Assembly: GCF_053078305.1 (NCBI RefSeq)
Contig: NZ_CP166879.1
Length of the DNA stretch: 64,000 nucleotides
Strand: one strand, 5' to 3'
Shown one piece after another: positions 11,476 to 20,757 of the stretch (positions are counted from its first letter, which is position 1; every line of letters begins with the position of its first letter). The translations under genes were made by a program, and so were the position numbers. The notes beneath the pieces were generated by a model that saw only the letters and a list, made by a program, of their open reading frames with translations, had not been told where the DNA came from and searched no databases.

Positions 11476-12465
11476 CTACCCCCTGAAACCCGGCGGAATT
11501 TCGGTATCCGGTTCAGAAATATGATTCACGCAACGCTGCGCGGGACCACGCCACAGTCGAATAACCAGTTCATCCCATTTCTCACGGAGTTTTTCCGGGC
11601 TCTTGATGTTTTTTATCCAGAACGGATCCCGTTGTGCCCGGCTGAACATTTCGCAAATTTGTCTGTGACTTCTTCCATCCAGCATCCGCATTGTGCGCAC
11701 GTCATTGGCCCACGCCGTCCAGTTGGGCTCTTTCGGTCGCGTGATCTCACCATCGTCACTGGCAGCCTGTTCGTACAGGTTTACAACCCGCCCCCAGATC
11801 CACTGCGCACACGTCAAATCCTCCCGGGTTCCCCACTGGCGTTTTTTCACGCTGAACACAACTGCATCAGGATGGCGGGTTAAAAACGCCTGTTCAGCCG
11901 TCAGCTCGTCCGGTTGCGAAGCGTCCGGACAAGAGAGTTTTTTATTCTCTGTTGTATTCTCTGTTGTATTCTCTGTTGTATTCTCTGTTGTATTCTCTGT
12001 AGGATCATCGGGCCATTTTGACCTGATGACATTGGGCCGTTTTGAACCAATGGAACGTTTCATTTTGACCTCTTCCATCGTGTCATTTTGACCTGATGGA
12101 GTGGCGCATTTTGACCCGATGGATTCGTTCACTTTGCCATCATCTAAAAGCGCGCTATCGTAGTTAATTGTGTAAAAATTAGTCATATCACGCTTCGATT
12201 TATTGAGCTTTTCGCTACGCAAAAGCCCCAGCGCTTTCAGACTTGCAAACGCACGCTTTAACGTTGACTCTGACCAGAACGGAAACTGTTCCAGCCATTG
12301 TTCCGTTGTGTTGTAAATCCAGCGAACGCCATCACATTCCATGCCGGAACTGGTATCCCTCAACCAGTAATGCAGTTGCTGCAACACAATGGCTTCGTTT
12401 AAACCAATCTTCATCGCCAGCTGTGTGTTTATAACCAGCGGGCGTTCAGCAAAAAGAAGGCTCAT
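11476..12465 (-). CDS. Replication initiator, lambda O-like
   Basis: N-terminal HTH-like segment; tandem repeats and iterons inside the gene as in lambda O/ori; ATG at 12465 preferred over the GTG at 12507. Confidence 0.7.
   Translation of the reverse strand: MSLLFAERPLVINTQLAMKIGLNEAIVLQQLHYWLRDTSSGMECDGVRWIYNTTEQWLEQFPFWSESTLKRAFASLKALGLLRSEKLNKSKRDMTNFYTINYDSALLDDGKVNESIGSKCATPSGQNDTMEEVKMKRSIGSKRPNVIRSKWPDDPTENTTENTTENTTENTTENKKLSCPDASQPDELTAEQAFLTRHPDAVVFSVKKRQWGTREDLTCAQWIWGRVVNLYEQAASDDGEITRPKEPNWTAWANDVRTMRMLDGRSHRQICEMFSRAQRDPFWIKNIKSPEKLREKWDELVIRLWRGPAQRCVNHISEPDTEIPPGFRG
11943..12000. repeat. Tandem 12-bp repeat TATTCTCTGTTG x 4.8, encoding (TTEN)n in the O-like protein
   Basis: Perfect direct repeats read directly in the sequence. 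Confidence 0.9.
12010..12125. repeat. Five iteron-like repeats (CATTTTGACC core, about 23-bp period); candidate replication origin
   Basis: Cores at 12014, 12038 (variant), 12061, 12084 and 12107. Confidence 0.6.
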
Positions 12466-12967
12466 AATTCCATCCGGCTTTTTGTTGGTACTGGTGACGA
12501 TAGGCACGCTTGAAAGCGATTGCTTTTTCTATAAGCTCGTCTGTCTCACGTTCCACAACAGCTGGATCTGCAAAAAGCAGCCCGGACTCCACCACATCGC
12601 CATATTCTTTGTTTAACCCGGCAATCATGTACGTAATGCTTTTTCCGTCAGTAATTTCGCGGTACAACCTGAAATCACTAATCCGGATAGCCTCCATAAT
12701 TGCCGGAATCAGCGCCGTGAATTTTTCTCGCTTATCCCTGGTGTCGATAGCCTTCCAGCGTTCGAATATCTTCACCCGGTTAACGCCAAGCGCACGCTGA
12801 TCAACCCCGCCATCATCAAGCGTGACACGCTGAACATCGATGTTCGGGCGTTCCTGTAGAGCCCAGAAGGCTTCAGTAATTAATATCGTCGCCTGCTCCT
12901 GCGTCATTCCTGGTCGGCTTATCCAGGCATCCAGGGCATCGCGTGCCTGCTCAAGGGTGATTTTCAT
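12446..12967 (-). CDS. Hypothetical protein between dicC and the O-like gene (possibly YdaT-like)
   Basis: 173-aa ORF; the family assignment is a guess from position. Confidence 0.45.
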   Translation of the reverse strand: MKITLEQARDALDAWISRPGMTQEQATILITEAFWALQERPNIDVQRVTLDDGGVDQRALGVNRVKIFERWKAIDTRDKREKFTALIPAIMEAIRISDFRLYREITDGKSITYMIAGLNKEYGDVVESGLLFADPAVVERETDELIEKAIAFKRAYRHQYQQKAGWNYEPSFC

Positions 12968-13181
12968 TGTTCAACCGCCCCGCCCGCTTCGTCTTACGAT
13001 ATTCGTCATAAACTTTGGGGTCATACTGAAGCTCCCCGCCGGATGCCTCTTGCAGGCGCATCGCGCGACCTTCAGGTACTAGCTCCCCTTTCCAGCTATA
13101 AAGCGAAGCCAAACGAATACCAGCAGCTTGTGCGAGTTTTGTTTTTGAACCGAAATACAAAAGTGCGTCAGTTTTAAGCAT
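12951..13181 (-). CDS. dicC: Cro-like regulator DicC
   Basis: 76 aa, divergent from dicA; matches DicC as I recall it. Confidence 0.8.
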   Translation of the reverse strand: MLKTDALLYFGSKTKLAQAAGIRLASLYSWKGELVPEGRAMRLQEASGGELQYDPKVYDEYRKTKRAGRLNNENHP

Positions 13182-13196
13182 TTAAAGCACCCTGAA

Positions 13197-13214
13197 TGTT
13201 AGTCATGACTAACA
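13197..13214. promoter_or_regulatory. Operator-like palindrome in the dicC-dicA intergenic region
   Basis: TGTTAGTCATGACTAACA, near-perfect inverted repeat. Confidence 0.5.
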
Positions 13215-13264
13215 AAATAGATGTTAACAAAAACATAGTCAATAAGATTTAGCATTAGCTAACT

Positions 13265-13672
13265 ATGGATACAAAAAATTTAACCATTGGCGAACGCATT
13301 AGATATCGCCGAAAAAGCCTCAAATACACCCAAAGGTCTCTTGCTAAAGCCCTGAAAATTTCTCATGTATCGGTTTCACAATGGGAACGGGATGACAGCG
13401 AACCGACAGGGAAGAATCTTTTTGCCCTCAGCAACGTACTGCAGTGCTCGCCAACATGGATTCTATTTGGCGATGAAGACAAGCAGCCATCACCACCTAT
13501 TGAGGAGCCAGTTGCTCTATCCCCCAAAGAACATGAGCTCCTTGAGCTTTTTAATGCATTGCCTGAATCAGAACAGGATGCTCAGCTCACCGAGATGCGC
13601 GCCCGAGTAAAAAATTTCAACAAACTCTTTGAAGAGTTATTAAAAGCCCGTCAACGAACAAACAAAAGATAA
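13265..13672 (+). CDS. dicA: Repressor DicA (XRE-family HTH)
   Basis: 135 aa; near-identical to DicA as I recall it. Confidence 0.85.
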   Translation: MDTKNLTIGERIRYRRKSLKYTQRSLAKALKISHVSVSQWERDDSEPTGKNLFALSNVLQCSPTWILFGDEDKQPSPPIEEPVALSPKEHELLELFNALPESEQDAQLTEMRARVKNFNKLFEELLKARQRTNKR

Positions 13673-13695
13673 CGCAATCAATGCGTTATCTTTTT
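13671..13695 (+). terminator. Possible terminator after dicA
   Basis: Stem AACGCA / TGCGTT followed by a T5 run. Confidence 0.35.
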
Positions 13696-13707
13696 GATCG
13701 CTAAAAA

Positions 13708-13760
13708 TGTTAGCCATAACAAACAAAAGCACTTGACCGGATTGTTAGTCATAGCTAATC
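13708..13760. promoter_or_regulatory. Two further operator-like half-palindromes upstream of the dicB operon
   Basis: TGTTAGCCATAACAAACA (13708-13725) and TGTTAGTCATAGCTAATC (13743-13760), related to the 13197 site. Confidence 0.45.
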
Positions 13761-13838
13761 TTACTTACATCAAGACACCGCACGGTGTTCTCAGCAAACA
13801 GTTCCGCTACCCCGGCGTTAAGGGGAAATGAGGTCAAC

Positions 13839-13991
13839 ATGGATACGCTCAATCTTGGCAACAACGAATCTCTGGTATGCGGCGTGTTTCCCAACCAGGA
13901 CGGCACGTTTACCGCGATGACGTATACCAAAAGTAAAAAGTTTAAAACCGAAGCTGGCGCGCGTCGCTGGTTAGCCAGAAACACTAACTGA
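13839..13991 (+). CDS. YdfA-like small protein
   Basis: 50 aa starting MDTLNLGNNES; first gene of the dicB-type operon. Confidence 0.5.
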   Translation: MDTLNLGNNESLVCGVFPNQDGTFTAMTYTKSKKFKTEAGARRWLARNTN

Positions 13992-14245
13992 TTAGCACCA
14001 GTAAAAACAGGTTGCCACTGGTTAATTTACCCTGAAAAGTCAGGGCATAACACGAAAGCGCACGGAGAAGCTCGTCTCTCTGTACTTTGTCGCTAAATTT
14101 AATTCGACCGTGCGCTTCCGGTTGTGGCAATCCGCGAAATGGCGCGGCGGTAAGTATGGCTGGGGTTTCCTCCATTGCTCCAGAAAATGCACCGGGTTGT
14201 CAGGTTGACCATACGCTTAAGTGACAGCCCCGCCACAATACCCAT

Positions 14246-14299
14246 GTGTAGTCTTTGGTGGCATCAGTTCTACTCCGTGACTGCTCTGCCACCCTTTTT
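14246..14299 (+). ncRNA. dicF: DicF-like small RNA
   Basis: GGTGGCATCAGTTCTACTCCGTGACTGCTCTGCCACCC then T5; matches DicF as I recall it, including the terminal hairpin. Confidence 0.55.
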
Positions 14300-14788
14300 A
14301 AAGTGAATTTTGTGATGCGGTGAATGCGGCTAAGCGCACGCGGAACAGTTAAAACCGTAAAGTGGTCTTTTACGGGGCGTAACGGGCATACTTCTGTATT
14401 CCGGCGTTAATTGTTAACTGGTTAACGTCACCTGGAGGCACCAGGCACTGCATCAACAAAGTTCACTTCGGTGATGAAGGGTAAGAGAAAATGTTGAATG
14501 TAGCTATTGAAAACCAGAACGGGTGGAATTATAGTGCACCTGCACCTCATAAAACGGGTGCCGGGCGTGGAAACCCGATGATGATCAACGCGCATAACCG
14601 CGCTCAGGCGGTTTTTTTTATGCGTCAAGCACAGCCACATTCAAATTATGGTGGGGCGTGCAGGGCAGCTGCAAGGCTGGCCGGCTCCGTTGGTCACCGG
14701 TATTTCCACCCCTGTACGTCTCACCACCTTTATGGTCGTGGAAAACCTCGGTGGTGAGTTATTTAAACTGATCAACGAGGCTGCCATC

Positions 14789-15346
14789 ATGGCTACTACC
14801 CTTACCCTTTCTCACCCTGACGTAACCATCGAAAATGGTCGCGCAGTCACCACGTCTGTTGCAGTTGCAGAGTTCTTCCACAAACTGCATAAAAACGTCA
14901 TTCAAAAAATTGAAGCTCTGGAATGTTCCGACGAATTCACTGAGCTTAATTTTCAGCCCAGCGAATACACCGACACAACCGGTCGCAAACTCCCAATGTA
15001 CCAAATCACCAAAAACGGCTTCGTTTTCCTGGTGATGGGCTTCACCGGCAAAAAAGCCGCTGCATTTAAAGAAGCCTACATCGCTGAGTTCGATCGCATG
15101 GAGAAAGAACTGCGCCAGAATAACGCCCCGTCTCCCGACAAAATGATTCACGGGGACGGACGTACCCTGGTTATCCGTCTCGACGAACACGGCAATATCA
15201 AATTCACTGAAACCGTTCCGGACGGCGCAATGGTCTGCACCCTGGATACCTTCCAGTTTTATCTGGAAAAACAAGGCTGGACTCTTGTAAACCGGAGCGC
15301 AATTAAAAATATGACTGTGGAGCAATTACTAAAAATTCATTGTTGA
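14789..15346 (+). CDS. Rha-family phage regulatory protein
   Basis: ATG at 14789 with GAGG 9 nt upstream; N-terminal region resembles the Rha family. Confidence 0.55.
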   Translation: MATTLTLSHPDVTIENGRAVTTSVAVAEFFHKLHKNVIQKIEALECSDEFTELNFQPSEYTDTTGRKLPMYQITKNGFVFLVMGFTGKKAAAFKEAYIAEFDRMEKELRQNNAPSPDKMIHGDGRTLVIRLDEHGNIKFTETVPDGAMVCTLDTFQFYLEKQGWTLVNRSAIKNMTVEQLLKIHC

Positions 15347-15356
15347 GGACGCGATA

Positions 15357-15545
15357 ATGGAAACGTTATTACCAAACGTTAATACGTCTGAAGGGTGTTT
15401 TGATATTGGTGTTCTGCTCAGTAACCGGGAGTTTACTGAAGATGCCATTAAGATGAGAAAATATGAGCCTTATCTTCTCAATGATAATTCCATACTCTCC
15501 AGAATTGCCCTTCTTAAACTTGGTATTTTCGGGGGGCAGCAGTGA
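15357..15545 (+). CDS. dicB: Cell-division inhibitor DicB
   Basis: 62 aa; N-terminus METLLPNVNTSEGCF matches DicB as I recall it. Confidence 0.7.
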   Translation: METLLPNVNTSEGCFDIGVLLSNREFTEDAIKMRKYEPYLLNDNSILSRIALLKLGIFGGQQ

Positions 15546-15730
15546 CTTCTGCATTTGCACTGGTAATGACTGTTTTTCTTATAACGGGTGAGCCACAGAA
15601 TGTGATTACCGGAATTTATGCCAGTAAAGAATCATGCCTCCGGGCAAGAGACGAGCAAAAAATTTCTGGCGAATGCCTCCCGTTAAAAAAAGTATCGCTG
15701 TACCTGAATAACGAAATACCGGCTGGATAA
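15542..15730 (+). CDS. YdfD-like small membrane protein
   Basis: 62 aa with hydrophobic N-terminus, ATGA overlap with dicB. Confidence 0.45.
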   Translation: MTSAFALVMTVFLITGEPQNVITGIYASKESCLRARDEQKISGECLPLKKVSLYLNNEIPAG

Positions 15731-15822: not shown

Positions 15823-18261
15823 ATGAGCACTGATAAAGAAGAATTTTCGCTATATTGCGAAGCAAAAAATGACAAGGTCAGAAAACGCCTTGGGATTAAA
15901 GGGGGTTTTTACTGGACTACAGCAAAAAAATTATCTGTTGCCATCTCACGGTGCGTTGTTGCAATGGACGAGGCAGGCTACGACGCTGATGATTTCAAAA
16001 AACCTGTCCGCGTCCATTTCCCCGTTGTGAATGACCTTCCACCGGAAGGCGTGTTTGATACCGAATTCTGCAACCGCTATGAAAAAGGCGGGGAAGATGG
16101 CATCACAATGATATTTATAGCGCCTTCCCCCTCAGTTCAGGACAAACCAGCCAGCACTGACAATACCAACGTCAATGGCGAAGACATGGCTGAGATTGAG
16201 GATAATATGCTCCTGCCAATTTCCGGTCAGGAACTGCCCATTCGCTGGCTTGCGCAACATGGCTGCGAAAAACCGGTAACGCACGTTTCACGGGAAGAAC
16301 TTCAGGCATTACATATCGCACGAGCTGAAGAACTGCCGGCTGTTACTGCCCTGGCTATTTCCCACAACACAAAGCTGCTCGACCCGCTGGAGATTCGCGA
16401 CCTTCACAAACTGGTACGCGACACAGACAAAGTTTTCCCTAATCCCGTTAATTCCAGTCTGGGGTTAATGACTGCTTTTTTCGAAGCATACCTGAACGCT
16501 GACTATACCGATCGAGGTCTGCTGACAAAAGAGTGGATGAAAGGAAATCGTGTTTCTCGCATCACCCGCACGGCTTCCGGTGCAAATGCCGGTGGCGGAA
16601 ATAAAACGGATCGTAATCCTGATTTAGTACACACCCTCGATACTCTGGATGTGGAGATTGCAGCAGCCACACTTCCGATGGATTTTAATATTTATGAAAT
16701 ACCCGTGAGCGTTTATCGTCGCGCAAAAGAAATCGTCCTGAAAAAAGAAAGTCCGTTCAGGGAATGGTCCCCAGCACTTCGCGCAACCCCTGGTATCCTG
16801 GACTATTCCCGCGCAGCTATTTTTGCACTTATCCGGAGCGCCCACCCTGAGTTTTATCACTACCCGGGACGTCTTCAGGGGTATATCAATGCCAACCTGA
16901 CAGAGACCGATCATGAGAATCCCACAACTGAAACTCTCACGGCTGCCCGGCATACACCGGAAAAAGATATCCTGGAAGAAATTAACGGAGGACTGGCTGC
17001 TGAGTGCAAAACAGAAGAAGAAAAAAATGATGAAGAAAACCCGCAACCATCTGGCGCAATGGCAGATGAACAGGCAACGGCTGAAACAATGGCAGCGGAT
17101 ACAGTTGAACATCATCAGGACCCGCAGCCGCTGGATGACAAGTCACAGGTAAAAGTTACTGCTGAAGAAGTAAATAAAATTATGGAGGCAGCAGACATCA
17201 GTCGACCAGATGCCGACAAATTGCTTGCCGCTTCTCGTGGTGAGTTTGTTGAAGGGATTAGCGACCCGAATGATTCGAAATGGGTTAAGGGGATTGAAAC
17301 CTGCGATTCTGTGAACCAGAACCAGCAAGAAACGGAACAGAACGGTCAGAAAGCGGAACAAAACAGCCCAAATGCGTTACAAAACGAGCCAGAAACGAAA
17401 CAACCTGAACCAGTCGTGCAACAGGAAGAGGAAAAAGTTTGTACCGCATGCAATCAGACTGGTGGTGGTAACTGCCCTGATTGTGGCGCAGTGATGGGTG
17501 ACGCAACCTACCAGGAGACATTCAACGAAGAAAGCCAGGATGAAGCCCGGGAAAAAGATCCGGAGGAAATGGAAAGTGCCGGACTCCCGAACAAGGAGTG
17601 CACCGAAGGCGATCAACATGCCAATGGCAATAATGAAACAGGCGAGACAGCAAATCCCTTAATTAAGGTGAACGGTCATCGTGAAATCACATCCACCAGC
17701 AGGTTGTGGCACCATCTGATGATTGACCTTGAAACAATGGGCAAAAATCCTGACGCACCAATAGCCTCAATAGGCGCTGTATTTTTCGATCCACAAACCG
17801 GAGAGCAGGGGCCTGAATTCAGCAAAATAATTGATATGGGTACATGTGGCGGCACTGTAGACATAAGCACCATCGAATGGTGGCTTCAACGCTCTGGCGA
17901 AGCCCGTGCCGCCATTTTAGCTGATCGAATACCGCTTGATGATGCGCTTTTACAATTACGGGAATTTATAGACGAAAACTCCGGTGAGTTTTTTGTTCAG
18001 GTCTGGGGAAATGGAGCCAACTTCGACAACGTGATTTTACGCCGTTCATATGAACGGCAGGAGATCCCCTGCCCGTGGCGTTACACCAATGATCGCGATG
18101 TAAGAACGATGGTCGCTCTGGGGTTGGTGATGGATTTCGATGCCCACAACGTCACCACATTTGAGGGTGAACGCCATAATGCCCTGCACGATGCGCGTTA
18201 CCAGGCAAAATACGTTTCAGCTATCTGGCAAAAACTGTTCCCGAGTCAGGCTGATTTTTAA
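15823..18261 (+). CDS. Large prophage protein: RecE-like N-terminal/central region, zinc ribbon, C-terminal DnaQ-type (DEDDh) 3'-5' exonuclease domain
   Basis: 812 aa; Exo I DLETMG, Exo II GNGANFD, Exo [12 protein letters not shown]; CxxC-x8-CxxC; acidic low-complexity linker. Confidence 0.6.
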
Positions 18262-18319: not shown

Positions 18320-18523
18320 ATGAGCAGCTTATTTTTAACCGAAGATGAATTGCTAATATTAACGGGCTGCAAATATGCAAGCCACCAGCGCAACTGGTTA
18401 ATAAAAAATGGGCTTCCGTTCTATACCAATCGTAGTGGAAAACCGATCGTCAGTCGGGAACTGTTTACCTGTAGAAACACTTTACCACCACGTGAGGCTG
18501 AACCTGATTTCGGTGCGATCTAA
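18320..18523 (+). CDS. xis: Putative excisionase
   Basis: 67-aa ORF immediately upstream of and overlapping int. Confidence 0.5.
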   Translation: MSSLFLTEDELLILTGCKYASHQRNWLIKNGLPFYTNRSGKPIVSRELFTCRNTLPPREAEPDFGAI

Positions 18524-19548
18524 TGGGAAGACGAAGGAAAAATCCCGAACACGAAAAATTACCGCCAAAGGTATACCCCAATAAATATAGTTATGTATGG
18601 AAACCGACATCCAGAGAATCTGTAACCTTAACTGCAATCGAGGATGGTTTAGCCGCATTATGGAAAAAGTACGAAGAAACAATTAACCATCGCGATCGGG
18701 CAATGACATTTGGGCGTTTGTGGGAAAAATTTCTCGCCAGCGCCTATTACAGCGATCTTAGTCCCAGAACGCAAAAAGATTATCTGCAACATCAAAAAAA
18801 GCTGCTGGCCGTATTCGGTAAGGTGCTGGCCGATTCTGTAAAACCAGAGCACATCAGACGATACATGGACAAAAGGGGCGAGCAGAGTAAAACGCAGGCA
18901 AACCATGAAAAAAGCAGCATGTCACGCGTTTACAGTTGGGGGTATGAACGAGGGTATGTAAAGGCTAATCCTTGTGCCGGTGTAAGTAAATTCAAGGCCA
19001 AAAACCGAGAGCGCTATGTGACTGACAAAGAATACCAGGCCGTATTAAGCGTGGCTCCTGTGCCTGTTTTTATCGCAATGGAAATTGCATACCTGTGCGC
19101 AGCAAGGATTTCCGATGTGTTGTCTCTGAAATGGGAACAGATCGGAAACGACGGGATCTTTATCCAGCAAGGTAAAACAGGAAAGAAACAGATAAAAGCC
19201 TGGAGTCCCCGTCTGCAATCAGTTATAGAAAAAGCTAAACAGCTACCCAAGTCAGCCTATGTAATCAGCAATCAGTACGGCAACCGTTACATGTATAAAG
19301 GATTTAATGAAATGTGGGTTGAGGCAAGAAATTTGGCTGGACAAATATCAGGGATCGCGACGGATTTTACATTCCATGACCTTAAAGCCAAGGGGATATC
19401 AGATTACGAAGGTAGTAGCCGGGATAAGCAACTTTTCTCTGGTCACAAGACCGAAGGACAGGTGCTAATCTATGATAGAAAAGTAAAGATCTCACCCACA
19501 CTGGATGTACCATTACCCCAGAATATTCCAACAAAATATTCCAAGTAA
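18523..19548 (+). CDS. int: Tyrosine integrase, lambda Int family
   Basis: 341 aa; lambda-Int-like N-terminus MGRRRK; ends about 50 bp from the 3' end of serU. Confidence 0.85.
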   Translation: MGRRRKNPEHEKLPPKVYPNKYSYVWKPTSRESVTLTAIEDGLAALWKKYEETINHRDRAMTFGRLWEKFLASAYYSDLSPRTQKDYLQHQKKLLAVFGKVLADSVKPEHIRRYMDKRGEQSKTQANHEKSSMSRVYSWGYERGYVKANPCAGVSKFKAKNRERYVTDKEYQAVLSVAPVPVFIAMEIAYLCAARISDVLSLKWEQIGNDGIFIQQGKTGKKQIKAWSPRLQSVIEKAKQLPKSAYVISNQYGNRYMYKGFNEMWVEARNLAGQISGIATDFTFHDLKAKGISDYEGSSRDKQLFSGHKTEGQVLIYDRKVKISPTLDVPLPQNIPTKYSK

Positions 19549-19600: not shown

Positions 19601-19690
19601 TGGTGGAGAGAGGGGGATTTGAACCCCCGGTGGAGTTGCCCCCACTCCGGTTTTCGAGACCGGTCCGTTCAGCCGCTCCGGCATCTCTCC
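19601..19690 (-). tRNA. serU: tRNA-Ser (anticodon CGA)
   Basis: 90-nt sequence GGAGAGATGCCGGAGCGGCTGAACGGACCGGTCTCGAAAACC...CTCTCTCCACCA. Confidence 0.85.
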
Positions 19691-20681: not shown

Positions 20682-20757
20682 TCCTCTGTAGTTCAGTCGG
20701 TAGAACGGCGGACTGTTAATCCGTATGTCACTGGTTCGAGTCCAGTCAGAGGAGCCA
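20682..20757 (+). tRNA. asnT: tRNA-Asn (GUU)
   Basis: Canonical 76-nt E. coli tRNA-Asn sequence. Confidence 0.9.

Follow-up and report, generated by a model that had tools for sequence, protein, structure and literature searches.

A Qin-type dic switch with a probable nested isrK-C4-Rha cassette in a mosaic lambdoid prophage of Escherichia coli

The 64,000-nucleotide stretch of contig NZ_CP166879.1 (RefSeq assembly GCF_053078305.1) that was analysed here, hereafter the window, is chromosomal DNA of Escherichia coli, with mtfA, yeeJ, the asn tRNAs and the his leader, and it contains part of a prophage whose immunity region resembles the dic region of the K-12 prophage Qin. The locus comprises dicC, the divergent dicA, ydfA, the small RNA (sRNA) DicF, a segment with the IsrK sRNA, a C4-type antisense RNA and a Rha-family gene, and finally dicB and a ydfD-like gene (Table 1). 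All gene and RNA family assignments lie above curated cutoffs. The region very probably represents the immunity and early-left part of a lambdoid prophage of mosaic structure at serU, in which a Qin-type dic switch holds a nested isrK-C4-Rha cassette.

Table 1. Positions in the window of the features of the dic locus and of two neighbouring prophage genes
Feature	Position	Strand	Description
YdaT-like gene	12446-12967	-	173 aa, full length; Pfam YdaT_toxin
dicC	12951-13181	-	Cro-like regulator, 76 aa; NCBIfam DicC NF007282 159.7 bits (cutoff 130); Pfam P22_Cro
Operator Oc	13197-13214		perfect palindrome TGTTAGTCATGACTAACA
Fourth, weaker operator-like palindrome	13247-13264		core TTAGCATTAGCTAA at 13249-13262; overlaps dicA start
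dicA	13265-13672	+	short CI-like repressor, 135 aa; NCBIfam DicA NF007257 234.7 bits (cutoff 101)
Hairpin	13664-13694		perfect 13-bp arms, just 3' of dicA; bidirectional-terminator-like
dicBp control region	13708-13760		two operators around -35 TTGACC (13733-13738)
ydfA	13839-13991	+	Pfam DUF1391 101.8 bits; 85.7% identity to K-12 YdfA
DicF sRNA	14243-14294	+	Rfam RF00039 61.1 bits (gathering score 48); 14243-14299 with terminator hairpin and U-tail
isrK promoter	14507-14535	+	TTGAAA-17-TATAGT; transcription start predicted at about 14542
IsrK sRNA	14542-14619	+	Rfam RF01394 65.7 bits (gathering score 50; model match 14542-14618)
C4-type antisense RNA	14644-14731	+	Rfam RF01695 73.5 bits (gathering score 45), model full length 1-87
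Downstream C4 targets	b2 14738-14744; a2 14769-14777	+	complementary to b' and a', respectively
Rha-family regulator	14789-15346	+	185 aa from ATG 14789; PF09669 107.5 bits (cutoff 29.9), TIGR02681 115 (cutoff 45.95)
dicB	15357-15545	+	62 aa; Pfam DicB 124.4 bits; NCBIfam 111.2 (cutoff 100)
ydfD-like gene (DUF1482)	15542-15730	+	overlaps dicB stop codon; Pfam DUF1482 58.4 bits
Exonuclease	15823-18261		812 aa, intact; RecE/ExoVIII N-terminal region and Rv2179c-like 3'-5' exoribonuclease domain
Integrase	18523-19548		intact, beside tRNA-Ser

The immunity genes are close to those of K-12. DicC and DicA share 98.7% and 91.9% amino acid identity with their K-12 counterparts, and residues 22-42 of DicA, which span its HTH_3 match, are identical; HTH_3 is the only domain of the repressor, which has no peptidase or cleavage domain. 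An original prediction, made from the sequence alone, had named the DicA repressor with its divergent DicC and a YdfA-like gene, and all three are borne out at the positions it gave, the first two by scores above the NCBIfam cutoffs and the third by its Pfam match and its identity to the K-12 protein. By BLASTN against MG1655, 12688-13982 is 88.6% identical to ydfX-dicC-dicA-ydfA, the dicF region matches 14027-14465 with 79.6% identity, and the match resumes at 89% at the 5' end of dicB. The first gene 3' of dicC in the rightward operon encodes the YdaT-like protein, of which K-12 YdfX (96 aa) is a truncated N-terminal part (89% identity over 93 aa). The dic module had been called complete, and all of its named parts are indeed present, but ydfB and ydfC gave no tblastn match in the window and some 500 bp of K-12 are absent from the alignment, so that relative to K-12 the operon is not complete.

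Three related operator palindromes had been proposed at 13197-13214, 13708-13725 and 13743-13760, and they are real and lie at exactly these positions. An unsupervised repeat search recovers them as one family, and they account for six of the eight strand matches to TGTTAGYCATRRCTAACA (0-3 mismatches) in the window, where 0.19 matches are expected and none of 100 shuffles reaches eight. Moreover, they align column for column with the sites of K-12 and of STEC434, the closest E. coli locus. The first of them, Oc, abuts the -10 element of a dicC promoter-like site (TTGACT-17-TATTTT, 13242 to 13214, minus strand) and matches the K-12 Oc 20-mer (TTGTTAGTCATAACTAACAA) at 18 of 20 positions. In K-12 this 20-mer binds DicA in vivo, and the single change from CTAACA to CTCACA abolishes binding (PMC3441716); the binding-critical A is retained in the window. 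A fourth palindrome, unlisted in the original prediction, is invariant in K-12 and STEC434 and probably corresponds to K-12 Oa, which, like Om, gave no DicA binding in the in vivo assay (PMC3441716).

The other two operators lie at dicBp, where 13708-13725 is positioned upstream of the -35 element and 13743-13760 between the -35 and the -10 region, and where the TTGACC hexamer as well as both operators are conserved in K-12 and STEC434. DicA represses dicBp in K-12, and the layout of the operators around the -35 element fits repression by occlusion, as in K-12 (PMC10448788). From the identity of residues 22-42 with those of K-12 DicA and from the conservation of the operators, we infer that DicA binds these sites and represses dicBp in the window as well.

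Downstream of ydfA, a DicF-like sRNA ending in a terminator hairpin had been predicted. Homology to DicF, the lack of which had been named beforehand as refuting, is upheld by the Rfam match and by the K-12 alignment. The RNA terminates in the stem GGUGGCA...UGCCACC and a U5 tract, two compensatory changes distinguish this stem from that of K-12, and the fold of the RNA has an energy of -15.8 kcal/mol (z = -2.6). The 3' two-thirds are kept relative to K-12, where this 3' part pairs with ftsZ and pykA and the 5' 14 nt pair with xylR (PMC5069750). We note that the conserved spacer between DicF and the cassette (14306-14460), which is also present in K-12, contains a sub-threshold Rfam match to STnc100 (30.8 bits versus 47). 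At the far end of the operon, dicB starts 10 nt past the Rha stop codon, and it and the ydfD-like gene are present where they had been predicted, with matches to Pfam DicB and DUF1482. DicB shares 61.3% identity with K-12 DicB and 98% with the allele of FHI_NMBU_10 and JNEC-KY171, and the YdfD-like protein is 46.8% identical to K-12 YdfD.

Between DicF and dicB, an 868-bp segment (14465-15332) without a K-12 counterpart consists of a promoter, the IsrK sRNA, the C4 antisense RNA and then Rha, and is a complete cassette of the Gifsy-1 isrK or P1 immI type. The statement in the original prediction that K-12 has no Rha gene between dicF and dicB agrees with the MG1655 annotation and with the alignment, but Rha is not the plain gene insertion between sRNA and dicB for which it was taken; instead, it is the last part of the promoter-isrK-C4-Rha cassette. 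At the K-12 junction, the final 15 nt of the rha open reading frame (ORF) are still present, and 8-9 bp of microhomology lie around the cassette, so that the K-12 dicF-dicB arrangement looks like a deletion derivative.

The isrK promoter-like site matches at 10 of 12 positions, is the best sigma-70-like site in the region and ends 6 nt before the start of the isrK model, and divergent cassettes keep their promoter hexamers at the same positions (TTGACG/TATATT, TTGATA/TACACT). No DicA-type operator was found near this promoter in the TGTTAGYCATRRCTAACA search of the window. IsrK ends in an intrinsic terminator (14596-14619) with a run of eight T (14612-14619) and carries two C4 target boxes, b1 (GTGGAAA, 14567-14573) and a1 (TGATCAACG, 14582-14590), and a sub-threshold match to the c4-a1b1 model RF03163 ("a1,b1 targets of C4") overlaps it. 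The C4 RNA, which has a minimum free energy of -44.5 kcal/mol (z = -4.2), presents a' in a loop (14688-14696) and b' as a single-stranded stretch (14703-14709). Both are complementary to two sets of boxes, namely b1/a1 inside IsrK and b2/a2 upstream of the Rha ATG at 14789, where G14777 is common to a2 and the Rha Shine-Dalgarno sequence GAGG (14777-14780). A further ATG (14648), equivalent to the start of Gifsy-1 orf45, lies within the 5' stem of C4. In addition, a 16-nt inverted repeat (14470-14485 and 14801-14816, 88% complementary) brackets the promoter, isrK, C4 and the first Rha codons; judged from the alignment, it is apparently weaker in STEC434, and, unproven as it is, it may be due to chance.

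Changes in the boxes are concerted between relatives. STEC434 is 95% identical to the window over the cassette, yet its a1, a' and a2 differ from those of the window in a coordinated way, and in phage PA2 the b boxes are changed as well. For the analysis of covariation, 10 distinct loci representing six box specificity types were collected from an exact-pattern scan of viral contigs and from a match in a Shiga toxin (Stx) phage, the latter included in the ten. In the downstream pairing (a'-a2 with b'-b2), 94.9% of the cells are paired compared with 80% in shuffles, and eight pairs have changes on both sides, a number reached by 0 of 500 shuffles, with slid controls at 36-47%; none of the ten loci loses a pair of the 9-bp a'-a2 helix, although seven of its nine pairs have changed on both sides. 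The upstream pairing (a1-a' with b1-b') behaves similarly, with 91.3% paired cells compared with 76% in shuffles and 11 doubly changed pairs (again 0 of 500 shuffles), and across both pairing tests the slid controls range over 31-55%. Because the upstream and the downstream pairings both covary, the C4 antisense interaction is well supported by sequence.

The protein encoded at the end of the cassette combines an N-terminal Rha domain with a C-terminal domain homologous to the AnrP family phrog_2379 (E = 1.4e-8). Searching the Protein Data Bank (PDB) with its sequence gave no match at E <= 1, and searching the PDB by Foldseek with its model gave nothing at E <= 0.001; the model of the N-terminal domain weakly resembles DNA-binding KilA-N/APSES folds. 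The gene had been described as intact and full-length, which holds for the Rha domain and for the 185-aa form and the 232-aa form, the latter open from ATG 14648 and the longest here, but not for a frame of 282-284 aa, which is split by an extra T in the window (8 T at 14612-14619 versus 7 T in close relatives). Over 14491-14790, we further observe that Phage_ASH (PF10554) and about 100 N-terminal positions of phrog_995 match the translated isrK and C4 RNA genes. The N-terminal part of the 282-284-aa protein may really be made, or it may be conservation of the RNAs taken for that of a protein. That the 284-aa ORF is purely an artefact of annotation was considered and not sustained, the frame being open in most loci, divergent ones included.

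The arrangement is widespread, but the combination found here is rare. The dicF-cassette-dicB segment is covered to at least 80% in 385 of 5,426 complete E. coli genomes (about 7%), one of them with 99.5% identity, and it recurs in viral contigs too, whereas the whole 2.9-kb combination is matched to at least 80% in only one genome. In FHI_NMBU_10, for example, Rha, DicB and YdfD are 98-100% identical to those of the window, but the repressor is 58% identical to DicA and no TGTTAG-type operators are present at the locus. Since the block is near-identical beside divergent repressors, ydfA-dicF-(cassette)-dicB-ydfD is a mobile module of the early-left operon, which has recombined with immunity regions of different kinds. 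In the Stx-type phage PA2 (locus L020, 4740-5931), the isrK-C4-Rha cassette lies in the leftward operon after cI and directly before kil. We note that this position before a division inhibitor parallels that before dicB in the window and that before icd in P1. No paper turned up in a full-text search combining dicB, Rha, dicF and prophage, and papers naming both dicF and isrK exist; the dic variant with an isrK-C4-Rha cassette is recurrent but apparently undiscussed.

Taken together, these elements suggest a two-layered switch. DicA would bind Oc and turn off dicC, whose product would be its Cro-like counterpart, and, from the two operators flanking the dicBp -35 element, DicA would also turn off the leftward operon ydfA-DicF-...-dicB-ydfD, both as in K-12 Qin. 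The cassette promoter, having no DicA operator, would produce IsrK, ended by the intrinsic terminator, and read-through would give C4. Pairing of C4 a'/b' with a2/b2 on the Rha ribosome-binding site would block translation of Rha, and the identical a1/b1 boxes in IsrK would compete for C4. In P1, the translational block by c4 also causes Rho-dependent polarity, and by analogy the cassette may limit transcription into dicB and ydfD. When DicA control is lost, or the balance of IsrK to C4 is shifted, Rha, which we regard as a modular regulator, would be made along with DicB and YdfD, and division would stop through the action of DicF on ftsZ mRNA, of DicB via MinC on FtsZ and of YdfD through lysis.

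Several points weigh against this reading. The whole mechanism is transferred to the locus by homology, and DicB and YdfD share only 61% and 47% identity with their K-12 counterparts, on which the experiments were done. In DicF, the first 14 nt, the xylR-pairing part of the K-12 RNA, have diverged, and the ftsZ-pairing stretch differs at one base; RNAduplex energies with the ftsZ leader do not discriminate, being -33.3 kcal/mol for the window and -38.5 kcal/mol for K-12 compared with -29.8 (standard deviation 3.9) for shuffles. The action of IsrK in Gifsy-1 has been explained by alternative mRNA structures and not by a C4 decoy, and co-expression of the orf45 RNA gave no relief of toxicity there (PMC4825925). 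Finally, the additional T of the isrK terminator may stem from a homopolymer sequencing error or, if genuine, may be a frameshift in a longer protein.

The last of these points leads to an explanation that we consider unlikely, namely that Rha is a frameshifted pseudogene whose true product would be the 282-284-aa protein of the usual RefSeq annotation, starting at the ATG equivalent to 14491 and reading through isrK and C4, and that the cassette is non-functional. Most database homologues do have 282-284 aa, with PF10554 and PF09669, the Prokaryotic Genome Annotation Pipeline (PGAP) calls a 284-aa protein in STEC434 and FHI_NMBU_10, which both have 7 T, and about 100 codons of the upstream frame are free of stops even where the cassette type is divergent. 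However, the start codon of the long ORF lies before the -35 hexamer of the isrK promoter, reading of this ORF would cross the intrinsic terminator, and the 8-T allele recurs in locus L006, which is of another specificity type, and in L009. Forms of 231 aa and 185 aa are found in databases, the annotated PA2 homologue begins at the short start, which corresponds to ATG 14789, and Gifsy-1 is translated from the orf45 AUG at +107, which equals 14648, with orf45 conserved in nucleotides and not in amino acids (PMC4825925). Moreover, the Shine-Dalgarno sequence, ATG 14789 and the whole Rha domain are intact in the window. A functional Rha could also be a dedicated antirepressor of this DicA that replaces Rem of Qin, the cassette then being an immI-type second immunity region that triggers induction. 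K-12 DicA does not have the bond needed for RecA-mediated cleavage and is inactivated by the antirepressor Rem (PMC10448788), the DicA of the window is devoid of a cleavage domain, tblastn with K-12 Rem finds no homologue in the window, AnrP, a protein with an antirepressor annotation, has a C-terminal domain homologous to that of Rha, and the cassette promoter appears to lie outside DicA control. Yet, in viral contigs, a C-terminal domain with 100% amino acid identity stands beside repressors that are 26% (L007 and L012), 57-69% (L005, L014 and L015) or 98% (L002) identical to DicA, L015 has a Rem homologue (72% identity) together with the Rha cassette, and in PA2 the cassette occurs together with a long CI repressor, encoded by a gene of 714 bp. 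The N-terminal model resembles DNA-binding folds, if weakly, and the prophage lies only partly in the window, so that Rem could be outside. Because the cassette block recombines with different immunity regions, Rha is probably not dedicated to the adjacent DicA, and its role as a cis antirepressor, which we hold to be improbable, was not adopted as the main explanation.

The plain Qin-like module of the original prediction, less decayed than in K-12 and with a stand-alone intact Rha gene but no further regulatory layer, is very unlikely. It would account for the presence of all dic components, for the absence of the Rha gene from a K-12 locus that looks like a deletion derivative and for the intactness here of early genes that are truncated in Qin. 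It does not account for the 868-bp difference, which opens with a promoter, isrK and C4, both RNAs scoring above their Rfam gathering scores and their boxes covarying, nor for the absence of ydfB and ydfC, nor for dicB/ydfD/Rha blocks that are 98-100% identical in prophages with repressors 26-58% identical to DicA. To call the prophage less decayed is justified as regards its early half, where the full YdaT-like gene, the 812-aa exonuclease gene, the integrase gene beside tRNA-Ser, the replication genes and Q are kept, genes that are missing or truncated in Qin. A relationship to Qin, however, is mainly confined to the immunity block ydaT'-dicC-dicA-ydfA (88.6% nucleotide identity); dicB and ydfD have diverged as alleles, and the two prophages also differ in Q and in the site of integration. 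The prophage is thus a mosaic lambdoid element and not a less eroded Qin.

In the nested arrangement that we prefer, the isrK promoter is located 3' of the DicF terminator and upstream of dicB-ydfD. The promoter nearest upstream of dicB-ydfD is therefore that of isrK, not the DicA-controlled dicBp. This raises the tentative and rather unlikely scenario that these genes would be expressed independently of DicA, gated by the IsrK:C4 balance through the block of Rha translation and polarity. In Salmonella, IsrK is raised by oxidative stress, low iron and stationary phase; if the scenario were true, stresses that raise IsrK could cause filamentation without derepression of the prophage. As a whole, the locus is ordinary, a mosaic of known systems with the well-known dic module in a fairly common variant. 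However, DicB and DicF are among the best-studied prophage-encoded regulators of the host, with effects on division, metabolism and phage resistance, and what is known of their regulation comes from the K-12 arrangement alone. In several hundred complete E. coli genomes, including many of Shiga toxin-producing E. coli (STEC), dicB is instead immediately preceded by a putatively RNA-gated regulator with an additional promoter, which suggests that results on dicBp control in K-12 may not transfer to cassette-bearing strains. In addition, the six covarying C4 box types constitute a natural dataset on the diversification of antisense "immunity" specificities.

The prophage adjoins a tRNA-Ser gene (serU, 19604-19690), which lies beside the integrase gene and matches a tRNA-Ser of JNEC-KY171. 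In this nearest genome, the same backbone is combined with a different immunity region, and the lysis, terminase and capsid genes correspond to sequence beyond the left edge of the window; late genes lie outside the window. The exonuclease gene is split in JNEC-KY171 and FHI_NMBU_10, and K-12 ydfE is an IS2-cut remnant pseudogene that begins at the corresponding position. The window also has intact replication genes, one O-like and one DnaC-like, as well as Q and hokD/sok, and K-12 Q gave no tblastn match there. The ORF of the O-like gene (11476-12507, minus strand) contains a perfect 12-bp tandem repeat, TATTCTCTGTTG, in 4.8 copies (11943-12000), seen as a TENT repeat in the protein, which may represent origin iterons, as in the lambda O gene. 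At 6560-6882, hokD, whose product is 100% identical to K-12 HokD, is accompanied by the sok antitoxin RNA (Rfam 121 bits). Two overlapping ORFs of 123 and 105 aa (5773-6454, plus strand) lie in the interval between hokD and the DUF968 gene, where K-12 Qin has rem; the second has a helix-turn-helix region 41% identical to residues 10-58 of DicA, and the pair looks like a toxin-antitoxin pair. Three phage-borne tRNA genes at 985-1231 have tRNA-Arg, tRNA-Arg and tRNA-Ile as their equivalents in JNEC-KY171. The tRNA genes at 20682, 35409, 37230 and 39638 have equal Rfam scores, the first matches a tRNA-Asn of JNEC-KY171, and all four fit the order asnT/W/U/V known for this part of the chromosome.

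Compared with K-12 Qin, the window shares the order and orientation of the genes, Oc and both dicBp operators in place, the 3' part of DicF and the overlap of dicB with ydfD. Qin differs in having ydfB and ydfC, no isrK-C4-Rha cassette and another integration site, whereas the window has no rem by tblastn, intact flanking phage genes and an integration at serU.

The order of RNAs in the cassette, with isrK overlapping c4-a1b1, then C4 and then a regulator gene, is shared with Gifsy-1 of Salmonella, where the regulator is anrP. The Gifsy-1 locus likewise has its own promoter, a leaky isrK terminator and an AUG at +107 inside the C4 region; there, IsrK supplied in trans raises translation of anrP about 140-fold, a processed RNA of about 80 nt, STnc1160, comes from the orf45 region, and the locus was likened by the authors to the CI RNA of P4 (PMC4825925). 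AnrP and the Rha protein of the window have the C-terminal domain (phrog_2379) in common, but the N-terminal domain of AnrP is ORF6N and not Rha, and the BLASTP similarity of the two proteins is only 23% over 75 aa. Furthermore, orf45 ends at an AUGA overlap with anrP, whereas its equivalent in the window is fused in frame to Rha, and the Gifsy-1 locus is situated 3' of Q in the late region, in contrast to the early-left position of the cassette described here. The rha genes of phi80 and P22 encode the same N-terminal Rha domain, but the C-terminal domain and the genomic position differ from those of Rha in the window.

The layout of the boxes is that of the c4 design of P1 and P7 (immI c4-icd-ant; P4 CI RNA with seqA/seqC; Rfam clan CL00128). 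As in immI, a C4-family RNA and its target would be present on the same transcript, pairs of boxes occur upstream and downstream of the RNA, the downstream box lies on the ribosome-binding site, and the boxes differ between relatives, as in the heteroimmune P1 and P7. In contrast to P1, the downstream gene of the window belongs to the Rha family and does not encode P1 Ant, there is no separate icd ORF, and the cassette is part of a lambdoid PL-type operon, where it immediately precedes the gene of a division inhibitor, dicB in the window and kil in PA2.

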